A DNA stretch of 32,000 nt from Pyrodictium delaneyi (GCF_001412615.1 NZ_CP013011.1:1500001-1532000); one strand, 5' to 3'. Counted from the stretch's first letter, positions 1,439 through 27,737 are shown. A program made the numbers and translations. The notes: generated by a model from the sequence alone, not told the origin.

Positions 1439-3898
1439 ATGCATCGCGTGCTCCTAGCTGTAGTCTTTATCCTCCTCTTGCCTAGTTACGCTGCACCCGC
1501 TCTCGCCCATGACAGTGCTGTAGTAGTTGAGGCTATCGTCGGCGAGGACGGCTGGGCGTTCATACATGCCCGGCTGCCGCCAGGAGAGTACCAGATAGTG
1601 GCTGTCGAGGGCTGGAAGCCTAGGCCCGTCAACCCGAAGCCACTACTCCTCAGCTTTACCCCGGATCCGGGGTTCTGGGAGAAGCTTAGAGGATTAGCAG
1701 TCGCTGCAACGTCTACAGTCTATGAGCCCAGAGTAGAACTCCTCGGCACGCCTAACGGTATAGAACTCTACGCGTGGGCTCCAGGCGAGCCTGGCTCCCG
1801 GGTTAGGGTGGTTCTTGAGAGGTTGGAAGCCGGAACGACCACTAGCGAGAAGAAAGGCATGCTCATAATCGTTCCTAATAACACGCTGGTGCTGAGCTAT
1901 GCAGAGAAGATAACTGAGCTGCATCACAGCCAAGGTCTAGACGTGGAGATAGTTACTACGGACGAGATCAGGAGGAGCTACAAGCCCGCAGATGAGCCAG
2001 AAGGGCTCTGTAAGCCTGGCAAGACCGGGCCCGAGTACGACGTTGACCTAGCCCGCCGCATCGTCTCCATGCTCCGCGAGGCCTACAGAGAGGGTGTACG
2101 ATACGTCCTCATAATAGGTGGTGCTAAGGACGTGCCACCGTTCTACTACTGTAGTCCAATCCTCTACGAGCTGGTAAACCCTGAAGAAGCTGCTGTTCCA
2201 ACAGACTACTTCTACGCCGACCCCGACTATGATGGACTCGTGGAATTAGCCGTAGGCCGTATACCCTTCAGTGACCCGGTAAAGCTCAGCACCTACGTCT
2301 CGGCATTAGAGAGCTGGATGAAGGGCGGGACCTGGCAGGAGAAAGCACTACTCGCCGGTGGAGCACCCTTCGCCACCAGCCTGCTAGTAGGCGAGGACGC
2401 TGTCATTAAGGCTATCATGAATATTGCTAGTCTAGATCTAGAGGTTGACACGCTACTTCTAACCATGGGCAACTACGCGGGAACACGCTTTACAAGCTAC
2501 ATAGGCGATTACGGGCTATACTACCTGGTGACGCACGGCGCTGGCAACGCGCTTCTAGACTACGTGCCGGGCGGGCTCTGGAACTACGACTTTGAGGAGA
2601 AGCTCCGTAGCATCGAGGTGCCGTACACTACACAGCCTGGAGTTTACCTCAGCCCTGCCTGCCGCGCCGGGTTCTGGGACTATGACCTAGTAGACCCCCC
2701 GTTCAAGCCCCCTAGCGTAGCAGTGTCGCTGCTGGAGCGAGGCGCTGCTGTAGCCTATCTCGGCTTCTCCCGCATAGCGATAGAGGTTATTGACGGGGTT
2801 ACTGCTGTCGATGGCAATGTTTACGCAAGCCTCGCTGCCGCTGACGCGGTGCTGATACTCTTCACGAAGAGTCTAGGCTCCGCGGAGACACTCGGCGATG
2901 CGTGGCTCTCAGCCCTCAACGCCTACTCGGTCATGCCCGCGAGTAGCTACCGCGCCTACCTGGTGAGGGGTCAGGAGGACATAGGCGAGCTAGTACTCCG
3001 CGAGGCTATATTCCTCGGCGACCCAGCAGCACCAAACCCATGGCGTAGGGTTACAATCACATCTACCGTAGAGCCGCCAGAGCTTGTACCCCCGCCAGGC
3101 AGCATAGATATAGGTGCATCTGTACTAGCTATGCCGCTAGCCCGTTACGCATCTGGTACTCTGCCCGCGTTTAACCCTGGTAATGCAACAACCATAACCA
3201 TAGACTTCGATGGCGTCTGCCCAGAGAAGGTCTATGCATGGTCGCTTTATCGAGTCTATGGCTACTATATGATAGGGCTTGAGCGTCTCTACGCTACTAT
3301 CGAGCAGAGCGGGGGCTGTACAGTCACGATAACACTGCCACAAGACTCGCCCGGCCTCATAAGGCTCCTAGCTCGCTGGGGCAATAACTACCTCACAACG
3401 TACTACATAATAGCTGCTGGAGCCTACCTCGATACAAGCACCGGGACGCTGGTAATAAGAGGACTTGATGTACTCGAAACCGTGGGTGACGAACCAATAC
3501 TGTTAACCGTCAACGGTGCAACAGCCTCCACTATACCTGGTGGTTCTACAAGCTACACCGTACCCTTACAAGCAATAGCACCATTGATGCCAGATAATAA
3601 TGCCATTGTATCGGTTACCCCTGTCTACCGGTTCGACAAAATATACGGTGGTAAATTCGTCGAAAACGAGCTGGAGAAGCTAGCTAAGCTCTTCACGGTC
3701 ACCGTACCCGCCGAGGATGCGGTAATTCTGCCCCCATTCTCTGTACAGTTCGCGGAGGGCAATACATCTTGCCCAACTCCAGCTGCCGGGAAAAAGCCGC
3801 TAACTGTTGGTGCCGACATCGTGGCATTCTTCGCTGCTATTGGACTGGTAGCAGCCCTAGCCATGGCTAAACGCCGCAGCTCTCCAGCTAGTCTCTAG
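1439..3898 (+). CDS. Secreted, C-terminally membrane-anchored protein with a peptidase C25 (gingipain)-like domain
   Basis: 819 aa. N-terminal signal peptide MHRVLLAVVFILLLPSYAAPALA. C25-like blocks: YVLIIGGAKDVPPFYY, PTDYFYADPDYDG..AVGRIPF, candidate catalytic His in YYLVTHGAGN and candidate Cys in YLSPACRAGFWD. C-terminal TM helix VAFFAAIGLVAALAMA followed by KRRSS. Confidence 0.55.
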   Translation: MHRVLLAVVFILLLPSYAAPALAHDSAVVVEAIVGEDGWAFIHARLPPGEYQIVAVEGWKPRPVNPKPLLLSFTPDPGFWEKLRGLAVAATSTVYEPRVELLGTPNGIELYAWAPGEPGSRVRVVLERLEAGTTTSEKKGMLIIVPNNTLVLSYAEKITELHHSQGLDVEIVTTDEIRRSYKPADEPEGLCKPGKTGPEYDVDLARRIVSMLREAYREGVRYVLIIGGAKDVPPFYYCSPILYELVNPEEAAVPTDYFYADPDYDGLVELAVGRIPFSDPVKLSTYVSALESWMKGGTWQEKALLAGGAPFATSLLVGEDAVIKAIMNIASLDLEVDTLLLTMGNYAGTRFTSYIGDYGLYYLVTHGAGNALLDYVPGGLWNYDFEEKLRSIEVPYTTQPGVYLSPACRAGFWDYDLVDPPFKPPSVAVSLLERGAAVAYLGFSRIAIEVIDGVTAVDGNVYASLAAADAVLILFTKSLGSAETLGDAWLSALNAYSVMPASSYRAYLVRGQEDIGELVLREAIFLGDPAAPNPWRRVTITSTVEPPELVPPPGSIDIGASVLAMPLARYASGTLPAFNPGNATTITIDFDGVCPEKVYAWSLYRVYGYYMIGLERLYATIEQSGGCTVTITLPQDSPGLIRLLARWGNNYLTTYYIIAAGAYLDTSTGTLVIRGLDVLETVGDEPILLTVNGATASTIPGGSTSYTVPLQAIAPLMPDNNAIVSVTPVYRFDKIYGGKFVENELEKLAKLFTVTVPAEDAVILPPFSVQFAEGNTSCPTPAAGKKPLTVGADIVAFFAAIGLVAALAMAKRRSSPASL

Positions 3899-3901
3899 AA
3901 G

Positions 3902-3909
3902 TTTGTTTT
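3902..3909 (+). terminator. Oligo-T tract (TTTGTTTT) immediately after the stop codon of the 819-aa gene; candidate archaeal terminator
   Basis: T-rich run 4 nt after the stop at 3898, followed by a 330-nt non-coding gap. Confidence 0.3.
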
Positions 3910-4232
3910 CGCACTAGGGCTATGACCCTACCGGTGAGACCACGACATCACTAATTATTTTATCACACGAATAATGTAGAGCTGAAAGGTACGAAACTAG
4001 GAAATCCTTGTAGAGACACTTATAGTCAGTATGAACGCAACCTGGTAGCGTAATCAAGGCAATCCTAGGCAAGAGCAAGTAACTATACATCATGACACTG
4101 CTAAAAGCGCTGCAGCAAGGCTTCTAATCTCTACTGTCTATTGATACGAAGAGGCTAGAGCTGAGCTTTAGAAATCTCCCAAGATGATGCCAAGTGCTAG
4201 GTGGAGAGATAGGCAGGGAGGCGTGACCCCGG

Positions 4233-5804: not shown

Positions 5805-6245
5805 ATGCAAGCGAGGATTATCAAGGGCCGACGTGTAAAGGGTTTTGGCGTCGGTGCTTATTACATATCGCATCCCTATTATAGTGGATGGTTCAGTAAG
5901 TTACTGAGTTGCAAACCATTTCCAGGAACCCTAAATATTGAGACGGACATTGATTGGCGTGAACTAGCCGGGCTATGCGAGCCAATAGTAGTGCCAGAGA
6001 CGGAATGGGAAGGCAAACATCTCGGCGCAGTATATGTCTGGAGAGCCAAAGTGGAGACAAACCAGGGAACCGCAGATGTACTCGTTATACGCCCATTGTT
6101 AAGCAGTCACGAGCCTTCAGTGCTTGAGATCGTGGCATGTGAGAGACTATCCACACTACTCAAAGGAGATACAATCCGTGTAGAAGTCCTTTGCAGAGGC
6201 GGAGACAATGAAAGTAGGCCTAATACTAGCAGGGGGCGAGGGTAG
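5805..6245 (+). CDS. ribK: CTP-dependent riboflavin kinase (archaeal RibK, MJ0056 family)
   Basis: The ORF track gives 5748..6245. I prefer the ATG at 5805 ([17 protein letters not shown]...), which gives 146 aa, close to known archaeal RibK length as I recall it. The diagnostic block is PFPGTLNIE, plus GAYYIS..Y and a C-terminal beta-barrel-like region. Confidence 0.75.
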
Positions 6246-6993
6246 ACGTTTTGGCGGAGACAAGCTCATCGCTTTAACTGACGGTAGGCCCGCAATTGCA
6301 CGGATTAGTGATGTTCTTCAAGCAGCTGGCGCAGAGCTTGTATATGTTGCAACACGGGAAGAGCAACGCTGTAAGATATACACGGATATCGCTAATTTAG
6401 ATGGCTGCATATATGACCCAGACTGGCTTGCATGTGGAGGACCAGCAGCTGCCTTAACGGGATTAGAGTCCCTTCAAGCCCGTGTACTACTAGTAACTCC
6501 AGGAGATATGCCATGGATAACACCAGACGTATTGATTAGACTAGAGGCCTTTATGGAACAGACCAAGGCCGAGGCTGCACTACCAATGCATAGTGGCGGT
6601 TTTCTTGAGACACTAGTAGCCACAATACGTTGGAGCCTTGTGGAAAGATTACCGAAGATACTTGTTCAGCTTTGCAATTTACGAGGAGAACTGAGAGCTA
6701 GTGATCCTTATCGAGCTTCAACGAGACTTACACTTGTTGGCTCGGGACTCCTTACATGGAATCCGATAGTATTTTCCCACATTAATACCCGCGAGCGCCT
6801 ACAAACCCGTGAACCAAAGAATAACCTTGGACCGAAAGACATACTGATTACGGAGCCCCATTTAGATCCATTTGCGCCAAGAGACCAACTATGTCTTAGG
6901 CTAGCACGAGAAAGAAACGAATATCACAAGCTTGGGATAATTCACTTGGAAAGACAGGCATGGAAGGACTTTCTTATGCTTTGTAAACAGTGA
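6208..6993 (+). CDS. mobA: Molybdenum cofactor guanylyltransferase (MobA) with a C-terminal extension
   Basis: N-terminal [20 protein letters not shown] matches the LAGGxxxRxGxDK nucleotide-binding signature. PGDMPWI matches the MobA DxP-type block. It overlaps ribK by 38 nt. At 261 aa it is about 60 aa longer than typical MobA. Confidence 0.75.
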
Positions 6994-7035
6994 GTTATAA
7001 CTTTATACGCTATGACACATCAGCTACTTAATAGT

Positions 7036-7099
7036 ATATTGTACAGTTATTATTAACAATATTATATAATTCGAAATATTGTAAAAAGTATAGTATTGT
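7036..7099. repeat. Phased ATATTGT motif array: direct 7036-7042, inverted 7056-7062, direct 7076-7082, variant GTATTGT 7093-7099
   Basis: Read directly from the sequence. The first three copies start exactly 20 bp apart and form ATATTGT-N13-ACAATAT-N13-ATATTGT. Confidence 0.5.
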
Positions 7100-7194
7100 C
7101 TATTATTCATAAATTTATCCTTATCACCATTAATCTATTTGAACACGCGTTATCGAGCAACCATAATTTTATCTAGCTATAGATTAATAAATAA

Positions 7195-7219
7195 TCATGA
7201 TAATTTTTAATTATGATGA
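7195..7219. promoter_or_regulatory. Imperfect palindrome TCATGATAATT-TTT-AATTATGATGA just upstream of the fdnG SD
   Basis: 11-nt arms with one mismatch, separated by TTT, ending 6 nt before GGAGG. It could be an operator or an mRNA-leader hairpin. Confidence 0.35.
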
Positions 7220-7238
7220 ATGATGGAGGCTCTGCCGA

Positions 7239-10200
7239 ATGCCGCCACAACGTAAAAGCAAGCCCGATTTGAATAGACGCTCGTTCCTCAAAGCAACAAC
7301 ATTGATGACTGCACTGGCTATGCTGCCAAGCAGTGCTAGAAGAGCACTTGGCTATACTCCGCCAAAGGAGTATATGCTCGGCGAGATAGGCAATAAGAGT
7401 CTCTATGAGACAGTTGAAATCCGCGGTGTATGCACATACTGTAGCGTTGGTTGCGGAATCATATTCTACAAGCAAGCCAATAAGGTAGTGTACCAGGAAG
7501 GCGATCCAGACAATCCTCTTAACGAGGGCAAGCTCTGTATAAAAGGCAAAGCTTCCATACAGCTGTTCGGCGCCCACAATCCTCTACGTGCCCGTACACC
7601 CCTTATCCGCGTAAATCCCAAGCCCAAGCCCGAGGAGATACTAGAAGCCAGGGACTCCAACGAGCTCATGAAGGTCCTGGAGAAGTATAAGCCAGTCTGG
7701 AAGCCTGTAACCTGGGAAGAGGCCTTCGAATACGTAATGAAGAAGATGAGAGAGATTCTCGAAGCCAATGCTGATGCTGTTAGAGTATACCACCCCTATG
7801 ACGGTAAGATATGTGATAGCAGGAAGGGCTGCTACTTCCGCTTCGGCAACAAGTACCCTGTAATGATAATAGCCGGCGCAAAGATGCTCAACGAGGAAGC
7901 ATACCTCATAAGGAAGATATCAATGCTTATAGGATGCAACAACATAGACCATGATGCGCGGCGTTGTCACTCCACTACAGTGGCCGGCCTAGCTGGCACA
8001 GTTGGCTTCGGCGCACAGACCCAGAGCTTCCCCGACACCCAGTATATCAGCGTCTACCTCATCCTGGGCGGGAACCCTGCCGAGGCCCACCCCGTCTCAA
8101 TGAGGCACGTCATGAAGGGCATCAACCGCGGCACACTAACACTAGTAGTGGTGGACCCGAAGTATGGGCGCACTGCATCCAAGGCCCATATATTCGCATT
8201 CCACCGCCCCGGCACAGACATACCCATAATGTACTACATCCTACACTACGCGTTCTTCGAGCGCAACCCGCCGGTAGACCGGCTCGACACCTTCCGCGAG
8301 TACGCTAAGAGGTTCAACATAGACATAGCTGAGATCGAGGAGATAAAGGACATAGCCAAGAGGTTCACTGCCGAAGAGGTCTCGAGGATAACTGGTGTAC
8401 CGGTCGAGAAGCTTCGCGAGATAGCCCGGCTCTTCGTCGAGAACAGCGGAGTAACCACCGGGTTCAAGAGGTTCGCCTCGATAGAGTGGGCTATGGGGCT
8501 CACTCAGCACCACGTAGGCACACAGAATACCCGCCTCGCCGCCCTGGTTCAGCTAGTCCTGGGCAATCTAGGCTTCCCAGGAGGCGGCCTCAACCCCTAC
8601 CGTGGTCACAGTAATGTGCAAGGCACAACTGACCTATGTATACTAAGCCACATATTCCCAGGCTACATCAAGATCCCGACCAATAGTAAGCAGATCCGCG
8701 CCTACCAGGAGTGGAAGCTGAAGGGCTTCCCCGACGCCTTCAACTGGCGCCCCAGCATGAACACTTGTAAGGCGCTCGGCCTGAAGTGCAGCGATTGCGA
8801 CGATAACGGCGACAACTGCAAGCTAACAGTAAACAGTGGGGCGCTACTCTGGGCATGGTGGTTCATGAACTGGCGCCGCTACGAGCTAGCCATGGGTATC
8901 TTCGTCGGCACGGATCCCGAGGATAAGCCGTGGGACGAGAACAGCGTCGTGATAAGCGATCTACCATTCAACAAGGGCTACACCGAGAACAACTGGTGGA
9001 TGGGCGTATTACTGCCCGACGACCCGAGGACAAAGAAGATCGGCGGAAAGATAGAGGCCATGTGGCTGTTCGGCGAGAACATAGCCATTAGCGACGCTGA
9101 CTCTAAGATAACCATGGCGGCTCTCGCAGCGCTAAAACTCCTAGTAGTGTCCGACATATTCATAACAGAGACCGCATGGTTCGCCGATGTATTCCTCCCG
9201 GCCGCGTTCCAGTACGAGAAGGAGGGCAGCATAACTAACAGCAACCGCTGGATACAGTGGCAGCACCGCGTGGTAGAGCCACCCGGCGATGCCAGGGCAG
9301 ACCTATGGGTGATGTACAAGTTCTGGGACTACATGAGGCGTAGTGGCCTAGTAAAGCTGCCGAGCGAGGAGTACGGTAAGAAGATCGAGCGTGTAGTAGT
9401 GAAGCACCCCGAGGCCGATACGCTGGTCGAGCTCTACCGGAGGAAGATAGAGCCCTACATGAACTATGGCAGCGGTAGATTCCCGTGGACCGACTACCGG
9501 GAAGTAGACCCGGTGCTCGTCTACAAGGAGATCGATGCTGCTGTAGACCTCTACTATGGCCAGTACGACTGGGCCCACGACAAGATACTAGCCATGAGGA
9601 GGATATCCGCGCCACGTGTACCCGGCCAGCCTGACGGTCTGCTCGACAGTGGCACCCTCGAGCACCCTGGCGGGAAGGCCCCGCTGAGGCTCTTCAAGGA
9701 CTGGGGCTGGAGCTGGCCCAGGAACGTCAGGATACTCTACAACCTGTACACATTGGAGAAGACATTCGGCCGCAAGGACAGCTTCACCTTTGAGCCAGGC
9801 AAATGGACCGTAGGCCCAGAGCTAGACGGCAAGACCGTGGAGATCACTGGCGAGGCCGGCGAAATGATAGATGCTAAAACAAAGATGCCTAGACCGGCCT
9901 TCATACCGGGCCACAACTTCGTGATAGGCAAGTACTATAAGCGCGCCTGGACATGCCTCACAGAGAAGTGCAGCCAGAAGACCACGGCCGACATATTCAC
10001 TGGCGCTGCCTACGCCGAAGACATGATACGCTACGGCAAGACCGTCGGCAAGATAGTGTTCTGGAAGCCTGGCGGCGGCTACGAGATAAAGACTGTCGAG
10101 GAGCTCGACATAAGGTGTCCGATGTGCGAGAGCTTCTACTATGACCCCGAGCTGATACTAGACTACGGCAAGGCCGTGTTCTATAAGCCGTACTTCAAGG

Positions 10201-11033
10201 GCACCAAGACCATTAACGGAAAGACGATAGTCTACAAGGACTGGAAGGAATGGCGCCCGGTGCACGACAAGTTCGTAAAAGAATTCACAGCCTGCATTGG
10301 AGGCAATCCTGAGAACTACAAGAAGTGTGTCAAGGAGTTCCTAGACAAGTATGGCGAGTGGTATGCTATAACTGGACCTGACGGCAAGGTATGGGCCTAT
10401 AGTATCGACTACCCGTTCCACTTCGAGCCAGTTGAAAGCCCGAGCATAGAGATGGCAACCAAGTACCCAGCACTAGCCTGGAGGAGGATAGAGAACCTGT
10501 TCTACATAGAGCCACCAGAGCAGATGCCGGAACTATACAAGGCCGTGGTAGCGACCTATGAAGAGCTGAAGAAGTACGCGCCTAGCGATGCAGAAGTGGT
10601 AGTGGTTACCGAGAACCGTCTTGAGGAGCACTTCCACACCGGTATCATGACGCGCAACGTGCCGTACCTTGCCGAGACGCTGCCAGAGCCCTTCGCAGAG
10701 ATCCCAGTCGAGCTAGCCGAAAAGCTGGGTATAAAGAGTGGCGACATAGTAGAGCTGGGCAACAATAGGAACAAGATCTACGTGCGAGCACTGGTAACAC
10801 ACCGCATGCCTAAGCTGAGGATAGGCAACAAGGAGGTCTACGTGATCAACGTGCCGTGGAGCTGGGGTTGGAGCGGCGCCCACAACAGCTTCGACGTAGC
10901 CAACACGATATCAATACTAGTAATGGACATAGTTACTACGATGCAGGAGACGAAGGCGTTCCTAGCATGGGTGAAGAAGGCCAGCCCAGACAAGTACACT
11001 TACCAGGCTAAACCCCGCATACAAGTGTTCTAA
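7239..11033 (+). CDS. fdnG: Formate dehydrogenase-N-type molybdopterin catalytic subunit (Cys-type, Tat-exported), unusually long at 1264 aa
   Basis: Twin-arginine motif NRRSFLK (7272-7292). [4Fe-4S] motif CTYCSVGCG...CIKGK. Active-site block IDHDARRCHSTTVAGL aligns with E. coli FdnG VDNQARVUHGPTVASL, with Cys243 (TGT, 7965-7967) in place of Sec, followed by His244. Further matching blocks: GGNPAEAHP, VVDPKYGRTAS, GLTQHHVGTQN, NPYRGHSNVQGTTD (catalytic Arg), EKEGSITNSNRWIQW and ENRLEEHFHTG. Confidence 0.9.
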   Translation: MPPQRKSKPDLNRRSFLKATTLMTALAMLPSSARRALGYTPPKEYMLGEIGNKSLYETVEIRGVCTYCSVGCGIIFYKQANKVVYQEGDPDNPLNEGKLCIKGKASIQLFGAHNPLRARTPLIRVNPKPKPEEILEARDSNELMKVLEKYKPVWKPVTWEEAFEYVMKKMREILEANADAVRVYHPYDGKICDSRKGCYFRFGNKYPVMIIAGAKMLNEEAYLIRKISMLIGCNNIDHDARRCHSTTVAGLAGTVGFGAQTQSFPDTQYISVYLILGGNPAEAHPVSMRHVMKGINRGTLTLVVVDPKYGRTASKAHIFAFHRPGTDIPIMYYILHYAFFERNPPVDRLDTFREYAKRFNIDIAEIEEIKDIAKRFTAEEVSRITGVPVEKLREIARLFVENSGVTTGFKRFASIEWAMGLTQHHVGTQNTRLAALVQLVLGNLGFPGGGLNPYRGHSNVQGTTDLCILSHIFPGYIKIPTNSKQIRAYQEWKLKGFPDAFNWRPSMNTCKALGLKCSDCDDNGDNCKLTVNSGALLWAWWFMNWRRYELAMGIFVGTDPEDKPWDENSVVISDLPFNKGYTENNWWMGVLLPDDPRTKKIGGKIEAMWLFGENIAISDADSKITMAALAALKLLVVSDIFITETAWFADVFLPAAFQYEKEGSITNSNRWIQWQHRVVEPPGDARADLWVMYKFWDYMRRSGLVKLPSEEYGKKIERVVVKHPEADTLVELYRRKIEPYMNYGSGRFPWTDYREVDPVLVYKEIDAAVDLYYGQYDWAHDKILAMRRISAPRVPGQPDGLLDSGTLEHPGGKAPLRLFKDWGWSWPRNVRILYNLYTLEKTFGRKDSFTFEPGKWTVGPELDGKTVEITGEAGEMIDAKTKMPRPAFIPGHNFVIGKYYKRAWTCLTEKCSQKTTADIFTGAAYAEDMIRYGKTVGKIVFWKPGGGYEIKTVEELDIRCPMCESFYYDPELILDYGKAVFYKPYFKGTKTINGKTIVYKDWKEWRPVHDKFVKEFTACIGGNPENYKKCVKEFLDKYGEWYAITGPDGKVWAYSIDYPFHFEPVESPSIEMATKYPALAWRRIENLFYIEPPEQMPELYKAVVATYEELKKYAPSDAEVVVVTENRLEEHFHTGIMTRNVPYLAETLPEPFAEIPVELAEKLGIKSGDIVELGNNRNKIYVRALVTHRMPKLRIGNKEVYVINVPWSWGWSGAHNSFDVANTISILVMDIVTTMQETKAFLAWVKKASPDKYTYQAKPRIQVF

Positions 11034-11068: not shown

Positions 11069-11863
11069 ATGACCGAGTACGGGATAGTATTCAACCTCGA
11101 TACATGTATAGGTTGCAGGGCATGCCAGACAGCGTGTAAGGTCTGGAACGGGCTGAAAGCTGAAGAGACTAGCTTCAACCCTGAGGGCTACACCAACCCA
11201 GTAGACCTATCGCCGAACACCTGGATGATAATGGAGTTCCTAGAGGGGTTGATGGGCGATTCACCATTCTGGCTCTTCAAGAAGCGCCAGTGCATGCACT
11301 GTAGCGAGGCACCTTGCGCCAAGGCGTGCCCGGTCAACGCCATAGAGGTGCATCCCGAGGGCGCCGTGGTAATCCGTCCCGACAAGTGCATAGGTTGCCG
11401 CTACTGTATCGAGGCCTGCCCCTACGATGTGCCACGCTACGACCCGATATCGAACAAGGTATACAAGTGTACATTCTGTATCGACCGTGTACAGAATGGC
11501 CTCGCACCCGCATGTGTCGAGGCCTGCCCAACTGATGCACTAGAGTTCGGCCCCTGGGAGGAACTGCTCCAGAAGTACCGCGCCGCCGGCTACGAGGTGT
11601 ACGGAGACAACGTTAACGATTACGTCGGACGCACTCACTACCTCTACGTGACGAGGAAGTTCCGGAACTTTGGAGCCGAGGAGGGCAAGAAGTGGTACGA
11701 GGCTATTGGCTTCCCAGAAAACCCGACAGGAGCACTACCACTCATTGAAGCCGGACGCAACGTTGGTGTAGGTCTTGCAGCGCTAGCAGCTGTAGGTGCA
11801 GTAGCTCACGCCATCTACTGGAGGGCTAAGAGGATCGAGGAGAGGAACAAGACCGAGAAATGA
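11069..11863 (+). CDS. fdnH: Formate dehydrogenase iron-sulfur (beta) subunit, four [4Fe-4S] motifs and a C-terminal TM anchor
   Basis: Cys motifs CIGCRACQTAC, CMHCSEAPCAKACP, CIGCRYCIEACP and CTFCIDR...ACVEACP. C-terminal helix VGVGLAALAAVGAVAHAIYW. SD GGTGATC lies at 11058-11064. Confidence 0.88.
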   Translation: MTEYGIVFNLDTCIGCRACQTACKVWNGLKAEETSFNPEGYTNPVDLSPNTWMIMEFLEGLMGDSPFWLFKKRQCMHCSEAPCAKACPVNAIEVHPEGAVVIRPDKCIGCRYCIEACPYDVPRYDPISNKVYKCTFCIDRVQNGLAPACVEACPTDALEFGPWEELLQKYRAAGYEVYGDNVNDYVGRTHYLYVTRKFRNFGAEEGKKWYEAIGFPENPTGALPLIEAGRNVGVGLAALAAVGAVAHAIYWRAKRIEERNKTEK

Positions 11864-11900: not shown

Positions 11901-12629
11901 ATGGGTAAGGAGGTTAAACTCTTCAGTGAACTAGAGATATGGGCACATAAACACGCTATACACTTCGCAGCCGCCCTAATACTAACGGGGCTGATAGTCT
12001 CCGCCAACAGCCTGCCAGACCCCCTAGGAGGGTTCTTCGAGTGGCTAGCATATACACTAGGTACACCAGCATCCTACTTTGCTGAAGCCCTCGGGCTTTC
12101 ACCGCTCGAGCAGAGCTATAGCGCCTATAGCCTCGGTGTACAAGTAGCTAGGATAGTCCACCGGCTCGCAGGAATAGGAATGGCGTTCATAGGCCTAGTG
12201 TGGCTCCTAGGCGAGCTACCACGGGCTAGGAAGTGGCAGATATGGCCCGAAGGCGGTCTAGGAGCTGCCGTCAAGAATCTGATAGACTACTATGTAGGAA
12301 AGAAGGAACCACGGTTCGGCAAGTATAACCTCGGCCAGAAACTGTGGATAATAGGTGTAGTCGTTGGCTTTACGCTACTCTTCATAACAGGCATAATAAT
12401 GTGGTTCCGCGACAGTTTCAGCCAAAGCGTGGTAAACACTGCTCATACGCTACACACATGGCTAGCATGGATAAGTATTGCTGGACTAATAATCCACATA
12501 TATCTCGCCATAGGAATACCAGAGCATAGGCCAATGCTGAGAGCCATGTTCCGCACCGGTACTGCACCAGAAGAGTTTGTGAAGAAGCATCACCCATTAT
12601 ACTATGAGAAAATAAGAAGCGAAGACTAA
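11901..12629 (+). CDS. fdnI: Formate dehydrogenase cytochrome b (gamma) membrane subunit
   Basis: 242 aa with 4-5 predicted TM helices. Conserved-looking His are at helix ends (HKHAIHF, RIVHRL, HTLHTW, IIHIYL), as in the FdnI/cytochrome b561 family. SD GGGGGTG lies at 11887-11893. The gene position after fdnH also fits. Confidence 0.8.
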   Translation: MGKEVKLFSELEIWAHKHAIHFAAALILTGLIVSANSLPDPLGGFFEWLAYTLGTPASYFAEALGLSPLEQSYSAYSLGVQVARIVHRLAGIGMAFIGLVWLLGELPRARKWQIWPEGGLGAAVKNLIDYYVGKKEPRFGKYNLGQKLWIIGVVVGFTLLFITGIIMWFRDSFSQSVVNTAHTLHTWLAWISIAGLIIHIYLAIGIPEHRPMLRAMFRTGTAPEEFVKKHHPLYYEKIRSED

Positions 12630-12674
12630 GCTCTCGGCAATACATTGAAACAACTATGCTGCATATACATCCTC

Positions 12675-12696
12675 TATTCTCTTTTTCATATTCTTA
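12675..12696 (+). terminator. T-rich tract (TATTCTCTTTTTCATATTCTT) after fdnI; candidate archaeal terminator
   Basis: Contains T5 at 12682-12686 in a pyrimidine-rich context, 50 nt after the stop. It is followed by AT-rich promoter-like sequence before the next gene. Confidence 0.35.
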
Positions 12697-12741
12697 CCTT
12701 ATGTCGAAGTTTACATTAAAGTTGAGAGTAATATAGATAAG

Positions 12742-17866: not shown

Positions 17867-18740
17867 ATGATGCTAGCTTGGTGAGCAACGGCTTAGACAA
17901 CGCTGTAGCCAAGGCAAAGAACGAAAACCCGACTACTCCAGTCATAAGTCCAATCTTCTCTAGCATCATTGCTACAGCGAGTGAGGCCAGTGATAGTACA
18001 AGAGAGGCTATTTTAATCATTAGACTCGGTGCTTCGAGTATTTCTTCTACCCTCTTTATCCTGGCCAGTATGAGGCCTGCAGCTATCAAACCCGCATCTA
18101 TTCCCGTTAACCGGGCTGCAGCTCGATAAGTGGGACTAGCTACGAGGGCTGCAACTGCTAGCGGGAGCCCTACTACGCCTAACAGTAGCGGTACCCAGGC
18201 TATATCTCTCTTGACTAGTAGCTTGTACGCTGCTATTGACATCACCGTGCCGATTACTATGCCTCCTACTACGTCGCGAGGATAATGGACATGGAGAACT
18301 AGTCTCGATAGAGATACCGCCGCCGTATGTACTACACCTACAACAGCTAGCAACACACTGCGTGTATATAGAGCTACCATAGCCCAGAAAGCTGCACTAA
18401 GTGCTGCATGACCACTGGGAAATGCCGGGCCCGAGGCTTCCACTAGCCACGTTTCCATTGGGGGCCTAGGTAATCCAACGAACACTTTGAGAGCAACTAC
18501 TATACTAGAGACAAGTGCTAGGCCCGATACCAGTCTGACACCTAGCACACCACTGAGAAGCGCGTAGATGAGAATACCAACAAGCATGTAGATGGCCTCG
18601 TCGCCTAGGTATGTCACAGCTCTGCAGTAGTCTATGCTGCCAGATATACAAGTGATAAGCTCGAGTGAAGCACCCACCAAAAGGGCGAACTCTAGTAATC
18701 TGTGTTTGTCCATCAGCTTGTGCCCCTCCCTGTTTTCCAC
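17853..18740 (-). CDS. PAP2-family membrane phosphatase (polyprenyl-diphosphate phosphatase-like) with extra C-terminal TM helices
   Basis: Three PAP2 motifs: KVFVGLPRPP, FPSGHAA and SRLVLHVHYPRDVVGG. The likely true start is the ATG at 18713, which shares one nt with the upstream TGA (TGATG). The 3' end overlaps the convergent PRTase gene by 14 nt. Confidence 0.8.
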   Translation of the reverse strand: MENREGHKLMDKHRLLEFALLVGASLELITCISGSIDYCRAVTYLGDEAIYMLVGILIYALLSGVLGVRLVSGLALVSSIVVALKVFVGLPRPPMETWLVEASGPAFPSGHAALSAAFWAMVALYTRSVLLAVVGVVHTAAVSLSRLVLHVHYPRDVVGGIVIGTVMSIAAYKLLVKRDIAWVPLLLGVVGLPLAVAALVASPTYRAAARLTGIDAGLIAAGLILARIKRVEEILEAPSLMIKIASLVLSLASLAVAMMLEKIGLMTGVVGFSFFALATALSKPLLTKLASSKLE

Positions 18741-19729
18741 AACTTTTCGAGGCTCCTTGCTATTATCTCGAGCTGTATGTCGCTGGTTCCCTCAGCCGGC
18801 TCTAGTGCGTAGAGGTGGAGCAGAAGGTCAGTGAGACCCATACCTCTGCGTACTGCGTGACCGCCGAAAGTACGGAGAGCTGCGTCAGCCGCCGCTAGCC
18901 CCATTTCAACTGCGACATACTTGGCTGCACTTGTAAGCCCCCAGTCGACTCCACTACCGCTTTCGAGTACATCAGCTGCCTTTTCCACGAGTGCTTTTGC
19001 AGCCTCAAGTCCTGCGTAAGCTCGAGCAAGTCTGTGGCTTACAGCCTGGAACCTGTAGACGTCTCTCTCAAGTGCCCAGTCTAGGGCCTTTTCAAGCACC
19101 GTATTAGCAAGGCTTACAGCAAGTGCTGCAACGAGGACTCTGCTTTCAGCTAGAGACCGGAGTACTACACGATAAGGCTCCCGGCCTGGGCCAGCTATGA
19201 GCCGTGCTTCCACATTCTCTAGCCGGAGCCTTGCTATTCCACTACAGCTATAGGCCTCTAGATCCAGAGGTTCGGCGTGAAGCCCAGCCGCATTCGGCTC
19301 AACAAGGGCTAAGACGTGGCCGCCGTTGCCCTGAGCGAAAACGAGTATCGCTGAAGCATAGAGAGCATTCGTCGCGAAGACCTTCTCTCCAGTTATACTT
19401 ACCCTCCCATCATCCAGTATCTCGGCACGGGTCTCAACGCCCGCTAGATCCGAGCCTCCGCGAGGCTCAGTGAGTGCCGGGGATAGCAACCCCTCGGGGA
19501 CCTGAACACCGAGACCTTCTAGGATGCGGCGTGCTACACAATGGCTTACCAGGCTCATACCCGTGCATGGATCTATACGCGTCTCCATAACTCTACGGGC
19601 TAGCATGCCTAGGTTGCTACAGTCTCCTGCTAGCTCGAGAACACGTGTTACGAGATTATGCTGGCTAGTGCTCAAGACGCCGAGGCACCGGGGGTCTAAC
19701 ATCTCCATAGCGGGAGGCTTTAACTTCAC
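18713..19729 (-). CDS. Acyl-CoA dehydrogenase family protein (short N-terminal domain)
   Basis: ALTEPRGGSDLAGVETRAE..DG..ITGEKVFATN matches the ACAD middle domain. FQAVSHRLARAYAGLEAAKAL and TFGGHAV...EPAEGTSDIQLEIIARSL match the C-terminal domain, including the catalytic-Glu region. At 338 aa it is shorter than the usual ~380. It has a GTG start. Confidence 0.7.
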   Translation of the reverse strand: MKLKPPAMEMLDPRCLGVLSTSQHNLVTRVLELAGDCSNLGMLARRVMETRIDPCTGMSLVSHCVARRILEGLGVQVPEGLLSPALTEPRGGSDLAGVETRAEILDDGRVSITGEKVFATNALYASAILVFAQGNGGHVLALVEPNAAGLHAEPLDLEAYSCSGIARLRLENVEARLIAGPGREPYRVVLRSLAESRVLVAALAVSLANTVLEKALDWALERDVYRFQAVSHRLARAYAGLEAAKALVEKAADVLESGSGVDWGLTSAAKYVAVEMGLAAADAALRTFGGHAVRRGMGLTDLLLHLYALEPAEGTSDIQLEIIARSLEKLWKTGRGTS

Positions 19730-19886: not shown

Positions 19887-20285
19887 TCAGCGTTTTTCTG
19901 CTGCAAGTGGATCACCTATTAGGCTGGAACGGTTTGCTGTAGCCGGCGGCACGATGTTACTCGTTTTGTAGGCGTGTCGTGGACAGATGTCTACGCAGTG
20001 GTAACAGAACATACAGAGATCGTAATGCACTACCGGATATCGACGTGGCCTCTTAGCATTTTCCTGGCCTGGTAGTAGCTTCATCTCTATCGCTCCCGGC
20101 GGGCACTCTATAGCGCATAGACTACAGCCTATACACTTCTCCACATCAACCACGTGGAGGCCGCGATACCCACCACTAGGAGTTGGGCCGGTTTTTAGGC
20201 CGTATTCTATTGTGGCAGGCCGCCTAGCCAAGTTTGATACGAGTTCACTTAGCATGATAAGTATACGCGGCTTCACAACTTCCAC
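19887..20285 (-). CDS. nuoI: 2x[4Fe-4S] ferredoxin subunit of the membrane-bound hydrogenase/complex-I-like enzyme (NuoI/MbhN-like)
   Basis: CIGCSLCAIECPPGAI and CMFCYHCVDICPRHA, separated by a spacer as in NuoI. It is the last gene of the operon. It has a GTG start. Confidence 0.85.
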   Translation of the reverse strand: MEVVKPRILIMLSELVSNLARRPATIEYGLKTGPTPSGGYRGLHVVDVEKCIGCSLCAIECPPGAIEMKLLPGQENAKRPRRYPVVHYDLCMFCYHCVDICPRHAYKTSNIVPPATANRSSLIGDPLAAEKR

Positions 20286-20290
20286 CCCTT

Positions 20291-21469
20291 CTATTGATCT
20301 GCCCGCCGACGAGCTAGTTGACGTAAGTTCTCTAGACGTTCGCGCCCAGTACGTTCATCAACTACTATAACGCGCTCCATGCATGATATGCAGGGATCAA
20401 GACTTGCTAGTATGACCGGTATATCCGCCAATGTGGCACCTTGGTAGGCTACGAGACTGTTCAGTATGTTGGGGATACTCGGCGTCCTTATCTTTACTCT
20501 ATAAGGCTTAGTGCCGCCCCGACTAACAACATGGTATAGGAGTTCACCACGTGGAGCCTCAACTCGTGATATTGCCTCACCCTCACGGAACCGGCGAGGC
20601 GGAGTCTTCAGACTGTTAATTGGACCGCTTGGCAGTTTTTCTAGCACTTGACGTATAATGTTTATAGACTCTAACGCCTCCTCGAACCGGACCAGCATAC
20701 GGGCGAGTGCATCGCCCTCACTACGTCTAATTACTTGGAAGTCTAGCTCCCCGTACCAAGCATAAGGATCATCGCGTCTGACATCGATATCTACGCCGGA
20801 GCCACGAGCTGTTGGCCCGACAAGTCCATGACTTACGGCCACACTGTACGGTATTACCCCTATGCCTTCAAGCCTACGGCGGAGCAACCTATCGCTTGTA
20901 TAGACTTCCATATAGTATTTTATCCGCTGTTCGAGAATATCCATGCTACGTCTTATCTTCTCTGCTACTTCAGGACTTAGGTCTCGACGAACGCCTCCTG
21001 GCCATACATAATCGGCTATGACTCGGTTTCCTGTGAGCAGCTCCTTTAGGTGCATTACCTTCTCGCGATCCCTCATTATCAGCATGAAGAGGCTCTCAAA
21101 TCCAGCTATCTCTGCAACCACGGCTGCTAGGAGCATGTGACTATGAAGCCTCTCGAGCTCCATTGCTAGGACTCGGAGAGCTTGAGCGCGAGGCGGCGGC
21201 TCGATACCATTTATCTCTTCGATGGCCTGGACATAGCAGTTAGAATGCATCATGTTGCATATACCGCAGACACGTGTCACTATATAGAGGGTTTTTAGGA
21301 ACGTATTGCTCTCAGCGAGCTTCTCTATCCCACGATGGTTATAGCCCGTAACTACCTCTACCCCGACTACGTCTTCACCGTCAACGCGTACACGGAGCAT
21401 AATGGGTTCGTGTAGTGCAGGATGCTGAGGCCCAATAGACACTTCTATTACCGGCATCCCCGTTATCAC
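20291..21469 (-). CDS. nuoD: Group-4 [NiFe]-hydrogenase large subunit (NuoD/MbhL/EchE-like) with an intact Ni-Fe ligand set
   Basis: L1 motif RVCGICNMMH (Cys68 at 21268-21266, Cys71 at 21259-21257). L2 motif DPCISCMER (Cys360 at 20392-20390, Cys363 at 20383-20381). A 26-aa tail VIVVDERTG... follows it. Also GPQHPALHEP and EAPRGEL blocks. GTGA overlap with the upstream gene. Confidence 0.9.
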   Translation of the reverse strand: MITGMPVIEVSIGPQHPALHEPIMLRVRVDGEDVVGVEVVTGYNHRGIEKLAESNTFLKTLYIVTRVCGICNMMHSNCYVQAIEEINGIEPPPRAQALRVLAMELERLHSHMLLAAVVAEIAGFESLFMLIMRDREKVMHLKELLTGNRVIADYVWPGGVRRDLSPEVAEKIRRSMDILEQRIKYYMEVYTSDRLLRRRLEGIGVIPYSVAVSHGLVGPTARGSGVDIDVRRDDPYAWYGELDFQVIRRSEGDALARMLVRFEEALESINIIRQVLEKLPSGPINSLKTPPRRFREGEAISRVEAPRGELLYHVVSRGGTKPYRVKIRTPSIPNILNSLVAYQGATLADIPVILASLDPCISCMERVIVVDERTGRERLENLRQLARRRADQ

Positions 21470-21906
21470 CTCTTATTCCAGTCCTTGCGTAACGGATATT
21501 CTCCAGCTACATCTGGCGGTGTGAAGAACCCTAAGCGGAGACTCTCATTACCCTCAAAGACTACGCCAAAGAGGTCGTAGACCTCTTGTTCATAGGGCAC
21601 TGCAGCGGGGAGTAACAGTGCCAAGCTTGGTGCTCTTGGCTGGCTTCGCGGTACCCGCGTCTTTAGCGTGAGTAGGCTCTTCTCCGGGATAATCCAGAAC
21701 ACATAGTCTAGCTCTATACTGTCCTCTTCAGGGAGATCTATGGCAGTTATCGCTGAGAGGTAAACTCCACGAGGGTAGGCCTCTAGCAAGCTTTTAACTA
21801 CTCCTGGCAGTTTCCAGGGATCATCAATACGTACTTCTAGACGTCGTTGCTTCTTTTCCACAATCTCTACTTTACTGTTCTTCAGCCACAGTTTTAGCTG
21901 CTTCAA
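21466..21906 (-). CDS. nuoC: NuoC/MbhK-like 30-kDa-type subunit
   Basis: 146 aa. YEQEVYDLFGVVFEGN and a R(K)DW-type C-terminus (YPLRKDW) are typical of NuoC/HycE-N/MbhK. It sits between the small and large subunits. Confidence 0.8.
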   Translation of the reverse strand: MKQLKLWLKNSKVEIVEKKQRRLEVRIDDPWKLPGVVKSLLEAYPRGVYLSAITAIDLPEEDSIELDYVFWIIPEKSLLTLKTRVPRSQPRAPSLALLLPAAVPYEQEVYDLFGVVFEGNESLRLGFFTPPDVAGEYPLRKDWNKR

Positions 21907-22405
21907 TTCTGTCAGCCTCCTCTCGGATACTCTTAAGGAGCCTAACTATGGCCTGGAGTATCGCGTCAGGACGCGGCGGGCATCCGGGAATATAGAGATC
22001 CACCGGCACGACGTTGTCGGCTCCACCAACTACACTGTAGCTATTGCGGAACACATTGCCAGAGATAGCACATGTACCAACTGCAACCACGTGTTTTGGG
22101 TCAGGTGTCTGTTCGTAGAGACGACGAAGTCTCTCAGCAGACTTCTTGGTTAGTGCACCCGTCACAATGATTATGTCGGCATGCCGAGGGTTCGGGGCCA
22201 GTCTTATACCGAAGCGTTCTGGATCGTAGAGGGGTGTTAGGGCCGCAAGAACCTCTATGTCACAGCCGTTGCATGCGCCGGTGTTAAAGTGGAGTAACCA
22301 GGGTGAACGTGAGAGCATTCTTAAGGTGAAAGAACTCCCACGATGCTTCACATTTTGCAAGGGGATATACGCCTCCGCCAAATAGAGTATATAGCTACGA
22401 AACAT
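21872..22405 (-). CDS. nuoB: Group-4 hydrogenase small subunit (NuoB/MbhJ-like), [4Fe-4S] N2-type cluster
   Basis: FNTGACNGCDIE (hydrogenase-type CxxC rather than the complex-I CC), GTCAISG and IPGCPPRP. The start is either 22405 (a TATA-like box lies ~32 nt upstream) or the internal ATG at 22318 (MLSRSPWLLHFNTG). Confidence 0.85.
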   Translation of the reverse strand: MFRSYILYLAEAYIPLQNVKHRGSSFTLRMLSRSPWLLHFNTGACNGCDIEVLAALTPLYDPERFGIRLAPNPRHADIIIVTGALTKKSAERLRRLYEQTPDPKHVVAVGTCAISGNVFRNSYSVVGGADNVVPVDLYIPGCPPRPDAILQAIVRLLKSIREEADRIEAAKTVAEEQ

Positions 22406-22436
22406 AGTTGATTAGGGTTACCCCGTAGAAGCCGGG

Positions 22437-22444
22437 ATAAAGAA
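22437..22444 (-). promoter_or_regulatory. TATA-like element (TTCTTTAT on the minus strand) in the 74-nt gap between the membrane-arm genes and the B-C-D-I module
   Basis: This is the only sizeable gap inside the 11-gene cluster. The T/A element sits about 32 nt upstream of the ATG at 22405, which fits a short-leader internal promoter. Confidence 0.25.
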
Positions 22445-22479
22445 CCCGCTGCCACAGCATACACGATTACACACCCCCG

Positions 22480-23880
22480 CTAGCGGATTAGACTGACTAT
22501 ACTGTCCACGATGGGGCCCGGCAATACACCTAGAGCTATTGCGGCCGCTGCTAGGATGAGGAGTGGTACAAGAAGCCTAGACGGAGCCTCAGAAGGCAGT
22601 GTACGAGGAACCGTTACCGACGGATGCCAGAATACTCGTAGCCAGAACCTAAGCGCATAGGCTGCAGAGGATAATACAGCAAGTGCTAGCGCAGCGACTG
22701 CTGCTATGCCGTAGACCCGCCCTACCCCTAGGACTATGAGTAGCTCACCTGGGAACATTGCAAAGGGCGGTGCCCCGGCCAGACTCATGGCTGCTACGAA
22801 GGCTGCGAAGGCTGTGACGGGCATGCTGCGGGCGAAAACTCCCATGCTGCGTATGTCGTCGCTTCCGCTCTGCTTCTCGAGCACTCCTGCTACGAGGAAG
22901 AAGAGGGGCTTTACGATGCCGTGTGCCAGGGCTGCTAGTACTCCACCAGCGGCCGCCAGGGGATGGCCAGCGGCAAGCCCGGCGTAGATTATGCCGGAGT
23001 GCCCAATGCTGCTGTAGGAGGCTATGAAGCCTAACCGGTTAGCTGAGAGGGCTCGGAGGGCTCCCACTATTGCCGAGGTTATGCCCAGCCACATCGCGGC
23101 CTCTAGCATGGCTGTGGTTTGGTGGGGCCAGTGGAATCCTGTCGTGAACCTGTACATTCCGTAGGCGCCGATGCTTGTGACCACGCCTGCGAGTAAGCCT
23201 GCCGCGAATGGGGGCACTGAGGTGTAGGTACGTGGGAGCCATGTGTGGAATGGGAAGACACCGAGTTTTATTGCAAAAGCTATAAGTGCCAATGGTAGCG
23301 CTATTGTTGATAGGCTAGCATCCACGACATTGCCTCCGAAGACCGGGGCATTGGCTGCTAGTAGGGCGCCTACCGCTACGAGAAGTAGCAGGGAGCCTGC
23401 ATGCATGTATATGAAGAATTCTGGGGCTCTTCTAGGGCTCCAGAGCCAAACTAGCACCGTGGACACTATGAGTACTAGTTCCCAGAACACATAGAAGAGC
23501 GGCAAGCTATAGGCGTAGACGAGCCCAATAACCGAAGCATGTATAGCAGTTACAACTATCTCAAAGACTGCCTCCCCTCCTCTACATGTTACGCCAGCTC
23601 TGCCTGCATATACTATGACTGTTATCGCTACTAGGGCAGAGAGGGCTGCGAAGAGCTTCGAGACAGTGTCTAGCCCCATACACACTGGAGCGTTGACGAC
23701 AGCTAACCATGAACGACATACAGCGTCGCCGTTGGCAAGCAGCGTAATAATAGCGGACACTGTTATCGAGATTATTGAGGCTGCCCTCCTACCAGCTAGG
23801 ACTGCTGCAGCACCTAATCCAAGCACTATTAGCGACGTCGCATACGCTACTGGTACGCCGAGCACGTTAGCCACCTCCAA
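22480..23880 (-). CDS. nuoN: Antiporter-like subunit (NuoN/NuoM/MrpD family)
   Basis: 466 aa, about 14 TM helices. FAIKLGVFPFHTWLPRTY matches the K..g..P.H.WLPdA signature. It overlaps the upstream gene by 14 nt. Confidence 0.8.
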   Translation of the reverse strand: MEVANVLGVPVAYATSLIVLGLGAAAVLAGRRAASIISITVSAIITLLANGDAVCRSWLAVVNAPVCMGLDTVSKLFAALSALVAITVIVYAGRAGVTCRGGEAVFEIVVTAIHASVIGLVYAYSLPLFYVFWELVLIVSTVLVWLWSPRRAPEFFIYMHAGSLLLLVAVGALLAANAPVFGGNVVDASLSTIALPLALIAFAIKLGVFPFHTWLPRTYTSVPPFAAGLLAGVVTSIGAYGMYRFTTGFHWPHQTTAMLEAAMWLGITSAIVGALRALSANRLGFIASYSSIGHSGIIYAGLAAGHPLAAAGGVLAALAHGIVKPLFFLVAGVLEKQSGSDDIRSMGVFARSMPVTAFAAFVAAMSLAGAPPFAMFPGELLIVLGVGRVYGIAAVAALALAVLSSAAYALRFWLRVFWHPSVTVPRTLPSEAPSRLLVPLLILAAAAIALGVLPGPIVDSIVSLIR

Positions 23881-25168
23881 GCATGGGGACTAGGCCGGGA
23901 TAGACTCCCAGCACGAGTAGAAGCAGCGAATACGCAAGGAGAGGGAGCCAGGGGACGTTGACGCCATGGGATACTTGATATCCACCCATTATCAAGTAAC
24001 GGAAGATGTAGACCGCTGATACTAGGAAGAAGATTGCCGATACTACTGCTAGCCAAGTGTATCCAGCTGCAGCGAATGCTGCTACTACTGAGAGTTTCGC
24101 GGCAAACCCATAGAGTGGCGGCGTCCCGGCTAGGCTGAGTAACCCCGTCACTTGTGCTATTTTGCCGATGCTTGTCTTTTCGTAACGGTGAGCAGTTATT
24201 ACCAGGGCTATGGACATGTTGCTAGCTGTTATGAAGTATATCGGGACTAGAGGGTCGCGTATACCAGATAGCGCGTAGACGACTGCGAGCAGGACAGTGT
24301 AGCCAGCGTCGCTCACCATACTGTAGCCTATCATGCGACGTAGCTCCTTCTGAGCTAGAGCAGAGAATTCGCCCACAACCATGCTCGCCATTGCTAGGAG
24401 GACAAGGAGCGCCGCGATTATTGGGCCGAGCAAGACTCCCGAGGAGGCTATCAGCTTGAAGAACACCAATAATACTGGAGCATCTACAAGTAGGATGGCA
24501 GTAACCACTCCGAGCAAGTGAGCGCCTTGGACTACATCGGGCAGCCACATATAGAATGGTGCAAGTCCGGCCTCAAGCGCCAGCCCCGCTGTGAGGAAGA
24601 CGAGGCCAAGGAGCACAGGGAGAGTCGCCCATGACACCCCTCCCAGGGGTGCTTCGGTAAAGCTGTGAAAGCCCTGACTGTAGAGTAGCCCCATGCCAAC
24701 AATTATGAGGGCTGTCGCCAGTATCGACGAGTAAAGGTACTTCACTGCAACTTCTCCACTACGCCGGCCTCCAAGACTATAGAGACCGGCTAAGGCGGCG
24801 GCAGCCGTCTCTATACCGGCGAGCAAGGTTAGTAGGCTAGCCGAGTAGAGCACGAGGAACCCGCCTAGAACGGCTAAGATAACTAGCGGTGCCCTCACCT
24901 TATCTAGCTCATCTACTAGACTGGCTAGGGCTAGTATCTCTGCCAGTAGGAGGAGTACCGCCATAGCATTATACTCCGTCGTCACGTATAGGATGTTTAG
25001 GCCAGCATACCTTACCATACCCTGGGGCAATACCCAAACAATTACCATCATGTAGATCATTGTGGCTAGTGTCGTGGCTGCTGCTGCACGGCGCGGAAGG
25101 ACAGCAGCGATAGCTGCGGCGGCTAGAGGAACGCCGGCTACCAGGGTTAGTAGCTGGTATACGTCCAT
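23867..25168 (-). CDS. nuoM: Antiporter-like subunit (NuoM/NuoN/MrpD family), divergent at conserved charged residues
   Basis: 433 aa and polytopic. LAGIETAAA is the TM5 Glu block. LALEAGLAPFYMWLPDVVQGA aligns with the NuoN block FK...PFH.W.PDVYQGA, but has Glu199 and Tyr206 where Lys and His are expected. Confidence 0.75.
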   Translation of the reverse strand: MDVYQLLTLVAGVPLAAAAIAAVLPRRAAAATTLATMIYMMVIVWVLPQGMVRYAGLNILYVTTEYNAMAVLLLLAEILALASLVDELDKVRAPLVILAVLGGFLVLYSASLLTLLAGIETAAAALAGLYSLGGRRSGEVAVKYLYSSILATALIIVGMGLLYSQGFHSFTEAPLGGVSWATLPVLLGLVFLTAGLALEAGLAPFYMWLPDVVQGAHLLGVVTAILLVDAPVLLVFFKLIASSGVLLGPIIAALLVLLAMASMVVGEFSALAQKELRRMIGYSMVSDAGYTVLLAVVYALSGIRDPLVPIYFITASNMSIALVITAHRYEKTSIGKIAQVTGLLSLAGTPPLYGFAAKLSVVAAFAAAGYTWLAVVSAIFFLVSAVYIFRYLIMGGYQVSHGVNVPWLPLLAYSLLLLVLGVYPGLVPMLGGG

Positions 25169-25170
25169 GG

Positions 25171-27018: not shown

Positions 27019-27021
27019 AGT

Positions 27022-27730: not shown

Positions 27731-27737
27731 TCTGTTA

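Follow-up and report, generated by a model that had tools for sequence, protein, structure and literature searches.

An AT-rich putative promoter with a conserved box upstream of the acceptor-responsive molybdoenzyme operon Pyrde_1511-1513 of Pyrodictium delaneyi

The AT-rich island that precedes the molybdoenzyme operon Pyrde_1511-1513 of Pyrodictium delaneyi is best explained, with moderate confidence, as the promoter of that operon. A conserved box of 15 nt, TTGAACACGCGTTAT, would be its predicted factor site, and neither the phased ATATTGT heptamers nor the 25-nt near-palindrome of the same gap would be operators. The region is ordinary in kind, an archaeal promoter with a predicted factor site upstream. 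We propose that it serves as promoter and regulatory region of an operon induced on Fe(III) oxide relative to nitrate, and that its functional core may be the orientation-specific box, bound by a putative transcription factor; one of three BRE/TATA-like elements would follow some 20-60 bp downstream, and after it a GGAGG ribosome-binding site. To our knowledge, no regulator or operator has been described for the respiratory molybdoenzyme operons of hyperthermophilic crenarchaea. Pyrde_1511-1513 are among the most acceptor-dependent protein sets of P. delaneyi, and their control region is a good place to seek a regulator. The present analysis redirects that search to the box and the flanking TATA candidates, away from the ATATTGT repeats and the palindrome. 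Coordinates of all features within the window, by which we mean the whole 32-kb stretch of DNA analysed, are listed in Table 1.

Table 1. Features of the gap and its flanking genes, in window coordinates
Feature	Position	Strand	Remark
MobA-like nucleotidyltransferase ALL01553.1	6208-6993	+	upstream of gap
AT-rich intergenic putative control region, 245 bp, 25% GC	6994-7238		between MobA-like and alpha subunit genes
ATATTGT copy 1	7036-7042	+	GTATAGT in sister species (L016)
ATATTGT copy 2 (ACAATAT on + strand)	7056-7062	-	ATAATAT in L016
ATATTGT copy 3	7076-7082	+	GTATTGT in L016
GTATTGT variant copy	7093-7099	+	GTATTAT in L016
Conserved box TTGAACACGCGTTAT, 15 nt, consensus TTRAACAC-NN-GTTAT	7139-7153	+	top footprint
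BRE/TATA candidate 1, CATAATTTTATC	7162-7173	+	2 mismatches to BRE+TATA consensus; 12/12 identical in L016
TATA candidate 2, ATTAATAAAT	7183-7192	+	identical in L016, with 5-nt insertion just upstream there
Near-palindrome TCATGATAATT-TTT-AATTATGATGA	7195-7219		contains BRE/TATA candidate 3
BRE/TATA candidate 3, GATAAT+TTTTAATT	7199-7212	+	inside palindrome; 5/14 positions changed in L016
Shine-Dalgarno-like GGAGG	7225-7229	+	9 nt before ATG
Catalytic alpha subunit Pyrde_1511, 1264 aa, Tat-exported FDH-N-like Mo/W-bisPGD oxidoreductase	7239-11033	+	
4Fe-4S beta subunit Pyrde_1512	11069-11863	+	
Cytochrome b gamma subunit Pyrde_1513	11901-12629	+	

The gap and the operon downstream of it

Gene order around the gap is CTP-dependent riboflavin kinase, MobA-like, alpha, beta, gamma, FdhD and FdhE; the first of these enzymes identifies the host as archaeal. 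The original description of a 245-bp AT-rich gap running from the mobA-like gene to the alpha gene is borne out in both size and base composition (25.3% GC). Nowhere in the window is the GC content lower: the poorest 100 nt of the gap have 16%, the window as a whole 53%. The accompanying claim that most gaps in this genome are short was overstated, as 7 of the 20 gaps in the window reach at least 200 bp; it is composition, not length, that sets this gap apart.

The alpha subunit begins with an ATG followed by the Tat motif RRSFLK. UniProt lists the alpha and beta subunits of the window as A0A0P0N5I7 (Pyrde_1511) and A0A0P0N570 (Pyrde_1512), and Kashyap and Holden 2021 give the same correspondence in their supplementary tables (PMC8105010). 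Strain Su06 has an identical alpha protein (ALL01554.1 / A0A0P0N5I7), as does P. delaneyi strain Hulk on NCQP01000003.1 (PMC5556600). The architecture is that of FDH-N, with an alpha subunit (Mo-bisPGD, Tat), a beta subunit (four 4Fe-4S), a gamma subunit (cytochrome b) and the accessory genes for FdhD and FdhE. The alpha subunit keeps the FDH active site, a Cys-His pair and an Arg; its ARRCHS corresponds in the alignment to ARIxHS in 1h0h chain A, and it also has RG..NVQG. The subunits score below the NCBIfam equivalog cut-offs (for alpha, 428 vs 814 bits in the FDH-N family). Whole-cell extracts show no FDH activity, and the authors of the proteomic study set the enzyme in a separate MoOR clade and propose the complex as a ferric reductase (PMC8105010). 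We refer to the product as an FDH-N-like membrane molybdoenzyme and a candidate iron reductase. The alpha subunit is about 250 aa longer than E. coli FdnG, and its close homologues occur in Pyrodictiaceae, Ignicoccus, Pyrobaculum, Thermofilum and Korarchaeota.

The three subunits respond strongly to the electron acceptor. On ferrihydrite relative to nitrate, the log2 changes at the protein level are +6.0 for Pyrde_1511, +6.4 for Pyrde_1512 and +11.4 for Pyrde_1513, and FdhE (Pyrde_1515) is unchanged (+0.9, not significant) (PMC8105010). Because the three proteins rise roughly 64- to 2,700-fold on ferrihydrite, a regulatory region is to be expected in the gap, in agreement with the original proposal of a control region upstream of a molybdoenzyme operon. 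Since alpha, beta and gamma respond and FdhE does not, the island precedes a unit of three genes whose regulatory range is very large, and fdhD-fdhE look like a separate transcription unit. The regulation is seen at the protein level only, and post-transcriptional control of Pyrde_1511-1513 may contribute to it.

A second AT-rich gap (12630-12741, 32% GC) separates the gamma gene from fdhD. In it, TTTACATTAAAG occupies -33 to -22 relative to the fdhD ATG and resembles a TATA element of the leaderless type. Upstream of the operon, the first 38 nt of the MobA-like gene (6208-6245) are shared with the 3' end of the riboflavin kinase gene. P. occultum (L003) and the sister species have this gene pair ahead of the operon too; Hyperthermus and the other MAGs do not.

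The conserved box and candidate promoter elements

Orthologous upstream regions were compared across 12 further lineages (L002, L003/L007, L004, L006, L008, L009, L010, L012-L015 and L016), in which L003/L007 is P. occultum, L004 is Hyperthermus butylicus and L016, a contig of a Pyrodictium sp. MAG, is the closest relative. The L016 gap aligns to that of the window end to end at about 87% identity, and the N-terminus of its alpha subunit is 95% identical. The region upstream of the alpha gene in the window was broken into all its 10-mers and 12-mers, each was sought in the orthologs, and shuffled orthologs supplied the null expectation. This footprint scan singled out 7137-7153, with 4 of 7 orthologs against about 0.45 expected (0 of 200 shuffles); among 11 orthologs, the box was recovered in 5 against 0.63 expected (family-wise p 0.002). 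An unbiased k-mer enrichment in the ortholog upstream regions gave GC-containing high scorers such as GAAGGAA and GGAACCC, which were discounted because shuffling a mixture of GC-rich coding ends and AT-rich DNA inflates their scores.

The aligned sites are TTGAACACGCGTTAT in the window, at -100, TTGAACACATGTTAT in L016, TTGAACACTTGTTGC in L006, TTAAACACGTGTTAT in H. butylicus and TTAAACACCGGTTAT in P. occultum (L003/L007), and weaker variants occur in L010 and L013. The sister-species box differs from that of the window only at the two central NN positions, which also vary in other lineages. The pattern TTRAACACNNGTTR has one match in each box-bearing lineage, always on the gene strand and 96 to 120 nt before the start codon; the remainder of the 16 fetched loci and of the window contains none. 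The box is clear in about 5 of the 12 lineages, and it is absent or unrecognisable in L002, L009, L012, L014 and L015. It thus displays what an operator should, namely conservation in orthologs above background at a consistent position and in a consistent orientation, and on these comparisons it appears to be the best candidate for a transcription-factor site in the gap.

The only other copy of a heptamer or box in the window is AACACGTGTT, a perfect palindrome at 19640-19649 that corresponds to the box core as it reads in Hyperthermus. An acyl-CoA-dehydrogenase-like gene on the minus strand (18713-19729) contains it in the 5' part of its coding region. The count is a single site, scored on both strands, against 0.15 expected, and the occurrence is probably due to chance. 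Two repeat pairs enclose the box and TATA candidate 1. One, the direct repeat CATAAATTTATC / CATAATTTTATC (7108-7119 / 7162-7173, 54 bp apart), is retained in L016; the other, a perfect 10-nt inverted repeat, ATTAATCTAT / ATAGATTAAT (7129-7138 / 7179-7188), persists there in degenerate form. The divergence is too low to infer selection from either.

An archaeal core promoter consists of a purine-rich BRE and an 8-bp AT-rich TATA element, with transcription starting about 24-27 bp downstream of the TATA centre. Searching for RNWAAW+TTTAWATA with at most 2 mismatches returned plus-strand matches at 7162, 7199 and 7200, plus one at 7055, a result that 8% of shuffles equal; the AT-rich composition makes such matches cheap. 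Candidate 1 would place the transcription start site near 7194 and candidate 2 near 7214. L016 retains the TGGAGGCTC stretch at the Shine-Dalgarno motif and Hyperthermus has GGAGGCT; SD-like motifs stand at -8 to -16 before many genes of the window. Because GGAGGCT is conserved, a short mRNA leader beginning near one of these two positions is probable. If the Shine-Dalgarno motif is in use, transcription would start upstream of 7225, which favours TATA candidate 1 or 2. This would put the box centre at about -48 or -68 from the start site, where activator sites of archaea typically lie. Candidate 3 may instead direct a leaderless start, as leaderless-type promoters exist in the window (e.g., that of fdhD). 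One point against our preferred reading is the 60 bp between the box and the most gene-proximal TATA-like element, a long distance for an activator in archaea.

Relative to the window, the sister species carries a 5-nt insertion, ATTAA, between TATA candidates 1 and 2, a local duplication at 1344-1356 of its contig corresponding to window 7182/7183, and a 2-nt insertion after window 6998. With these insertions, the spacing from box to start codon is not strictly fixed.

AT-richness, phased heptamers and the near-palindrome

Base composition is itself conserved. The 100 nt richest in A and T within a locus lie directly upstream of the alpha gene at 12 of the 14 loci, although genome GC contents span 46-66% and the upstream neighbours differ. 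Most of the island's sequence shows no conservation in the ortholog comparison. These observations suit a reading in which it is AT-richness as such that is conserved, as a pad for sequence-tolerant chromatin or nucleoid proteins or as deformable DNA that sets the very large on/off range of the promoter, and under which motifs other than the TATA box would matter little. AT-rich promoters are, however, generic in archaea, AA/TT dinucleotides in the gap have neither the 10-11 bp helical periodicity that would indicate intrinsic curvature nor a 20-bp one, and a specific box is conserved inside the island. We consider this reading unlikely, and it is compatible with the preferred explanation of a promoter with an upstream factor site.

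The heptamers were originally read as cooperative sites for a dimeric regulator. Reading the sequence from 6700 to 7500 confirmed their coordinates, the 20-bp spacing of their starts and both N13 inverted pairs; copy 2 overlaps AACAATATTATATA at 7055, a weak match to BRE/TATA. When the gap is shuffled with its dinucleotide counts preserved, 71% of the shuffles contain some 7-mer at least three times, counting either strand, 1.3% contain an equally spaced 7-mer triple and 0.23% the exact +/-/+ arrangement at equal spacing. The phasing is thus statistically unusual within the gap, but the pattern was chosen after it had been seen, and the threefold repetition of a 7-mer is in itself common.

Conservation does not follow the phasing. 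In L016 every one of the four copies carries a substitution, and together they differ at 5 of 28 positions (18%), a faster divergence than the 12.7% of the whole gap; no exact ATATTGT is left in the L016 gap, both N13 inverted repeats are lost, and two copies have lost the only G of the motif. Across the 11 more distant orthologs, ATATTGT, TATTGT, ATATTG and ATTGT occur at expectation (z -0.3 to 0.7), and the 12-mers that cover the heptamer copies reach pointwise p values of 0.07-0.6. The sole echo is one ACAATAT in L010, at -179 from the start codon against -183 in the window. The consensuses for TGM, SurR, Ss-LrpB and NrpR found no match in the gap at permissive mismatches, and ModE-like and FNR-like matches are at chance level.

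A recent, lineage-specific array of three or four sites for a dimeric or tetrameric regulator of the Lrp, TrmB or ArsR type would accommodate the arrangement, its rarity in shuffles, the L010 copy and the strong regulation of the operon. Such an array would nonetheless have to be reconciled with the divergence in the sister species, the lack of enrichment elsewhere, and half-sites that are unsuited, at 20 bp apart, to a single dimer. We judge it improbable, and favour the view that the heptamers are by-products of very AT-rich, fast-evolving DNA rather than conserved operators. Given the 0.23% shuffle rate, they may still have a function specific to P. delaneyi.

The near-palindrome was suggested to be a second operator or a translational hairpin. 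Steric occlusion of the TATA element is the commonest mode of repression in archaea, and the palindrome overlaps the BRE/TATA-like match GATAATTTTTAATT just upstream of the Shine-Dalgarno motif. Its 11-nt arms are present with a single mismatch. A comparable inverted repeat (11-nt arms, at most 1 mismatch, loop of at most 12) turns up in 16% of shuffles, and a repeat finder returned the palindrome as one of 15 comparable AT-rich inverted pairs. In L016 it is the most diverged segment, changed at 7 of 25 positions (28%); the changes are not compensatory, with pairing retained at 4 of the 11 positions of the arm by a visual count on the alignment, and an inverted-repeat scan of L016 found none at this position. 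Neither are the arms conserved in other orthologs. Within the palindrome, ATAATTTTTAAT is shared with Hyperthermus. As RNA, the palindrome has a predicted folding energy of -5.2 kcal/mol at 37 C and of -0.2 kcal/mol at 60 C, and it forms no structure at 75 C or above; its stem ends 5 nt before the Shine-Dalgarno motif without including it. As P. delaneyi cultures were grown at 90 C (PMC8105010), a translational hairpin is physically implausible. A functional palindrome, whether as a repressor operator overlapping TATA or as a 5'-UTR hairpin that masks translation initiation, is thus very improbable, and the 25-nt element is better regarded as another apparent by-product of AT-rich, fast-evolving DNA.

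ALTERNATIVES examined for the gap were Rfam families, small ORFs, known operator consensuses and regulator genes in the window. No small ORF of the AT island is kept in the sister species. A 134-aa antisense ORF at 7173-7577 was rejected as a gene, since it merely mirrors the conserved alpha coding sequence, and a scan for bacterial sigma-70 promoters and terminators was set aside because the host is archaeal and the surplus of matches reflects AT-richness only.

Known control regions and candidate regulators

Archaeal factor sites upstream of promoters include those of Ptr2 in Methanocaldococcus and of TrmBL1 (TGM) and SurR in Thermococcales. Like these, the box lies tens of bp upstream of TATA-like elements in front of a strongly regulated energy-metabolism operon, and its position would fit either recruitment or occlusion of TBP/TFB, such that a bound factor might activate or repress. 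Its sequence matches none of the TGM, SurR, Ss-LrpB and NrpR consensuses, and, unlike those sites, it is asymmetric and always on the gene strand. In Sulfolobus, Ss-LrpB binds arrays of regularly spaced AT-rich operator boxes, which are 15-bp palindromes. The window similarly has three to four regularly spaced AT-rich repeats upstream of the promoter, but they are 7-mers 20 bp apart with no match to TTGYAWWWWWTRCAA at 2 or fewer mismatches, and the array is missing from the sister species and other orthologs.

The control region of E. coli fdnGHI combines NarL heptamers with an FNR site, and it resembles the window in having heptamers in both orientations upstream of an acceptor-responsive alpha-beta-gamma operon of the FDH-N type. 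The window differs in its archaeal BRE/TATA promoter, in FNR-like matches that stay at chance level and in heptamers that are not conserved, and its regulation is opposite, Pyrde_1511-1513 being low on nitrate. Finally, the Moco riboswitch (RF01055) is a 5' regulatory element of bacterial Mo-cofactor operons, and the gap likewise lies 5' of a molybdoenzyme operon; unlike a riboswitch region, 6700-7500 gave no family at a meaningful score on either strand in an Rfam 15 scan at a permissive E-value, RF01055 included, and the best score was a spurious snoRNA (15.8 bits, E 0.65).

As for the signal, the response to ferrihydrite versus nitrate makes redox state or the electron acceptor plausible, as originally suggested; formate and molybdate, proposed alongside, have no pointer in their favour, and the extracts were without FDH activity. 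We tentatively raise the possibility that the TTRAACAC-NN-GTTAT box is the cis-element of a putative, undescribed Pyrodictiaceae regulator that senses Fe(III) versus nitrate and switches the molybdoenzyme on. If true, this would offer a first handle on respiratory gene control in hyperthermophilic Crenarchaeota. We found no regulator gene in the 32-kb window and, in the literature, no promoter, regulator, start-site, footprint or binding data for the operon, its relatives or Pyrodictium. The proteomic tables list two acceptor-dependent "transcriptional regulators", Pyrde_1102 (up on Fe) and Pyrde_0667 (up on nitrate) (PMC8105010), which are leads only as regulators of Pyrde_1511-1513. Pyrde_0919-0921 form an operon that is co-regulated with Pyrde_1511-1513, and Pyrde_0784-0787 and Pyrde_1484 are likewise Fe-induced.

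Several further observations concern annotation and gene content. In P. occultum L003 (LNTB01000001.1), the alpha protein as deposited (1226 aa) lacks its Tat signal, which is encoded upstream of the annotated start; translation from a TTG at L003:3886 recovers the N-terminus (...LRLDRRNFLK..., region 3886-4000), as in the near-identical L007. Elsewhere, the window encodes a type III RuBisCO large subunit and an 819-aa protein with a C25-peptidase domain (10-1347 and 1439-3898) and, on the minus strand at 19887-29014, a 10-gene operon for a complex-I/Mrp-like (Mbx-type) membrane oxidoreductase.
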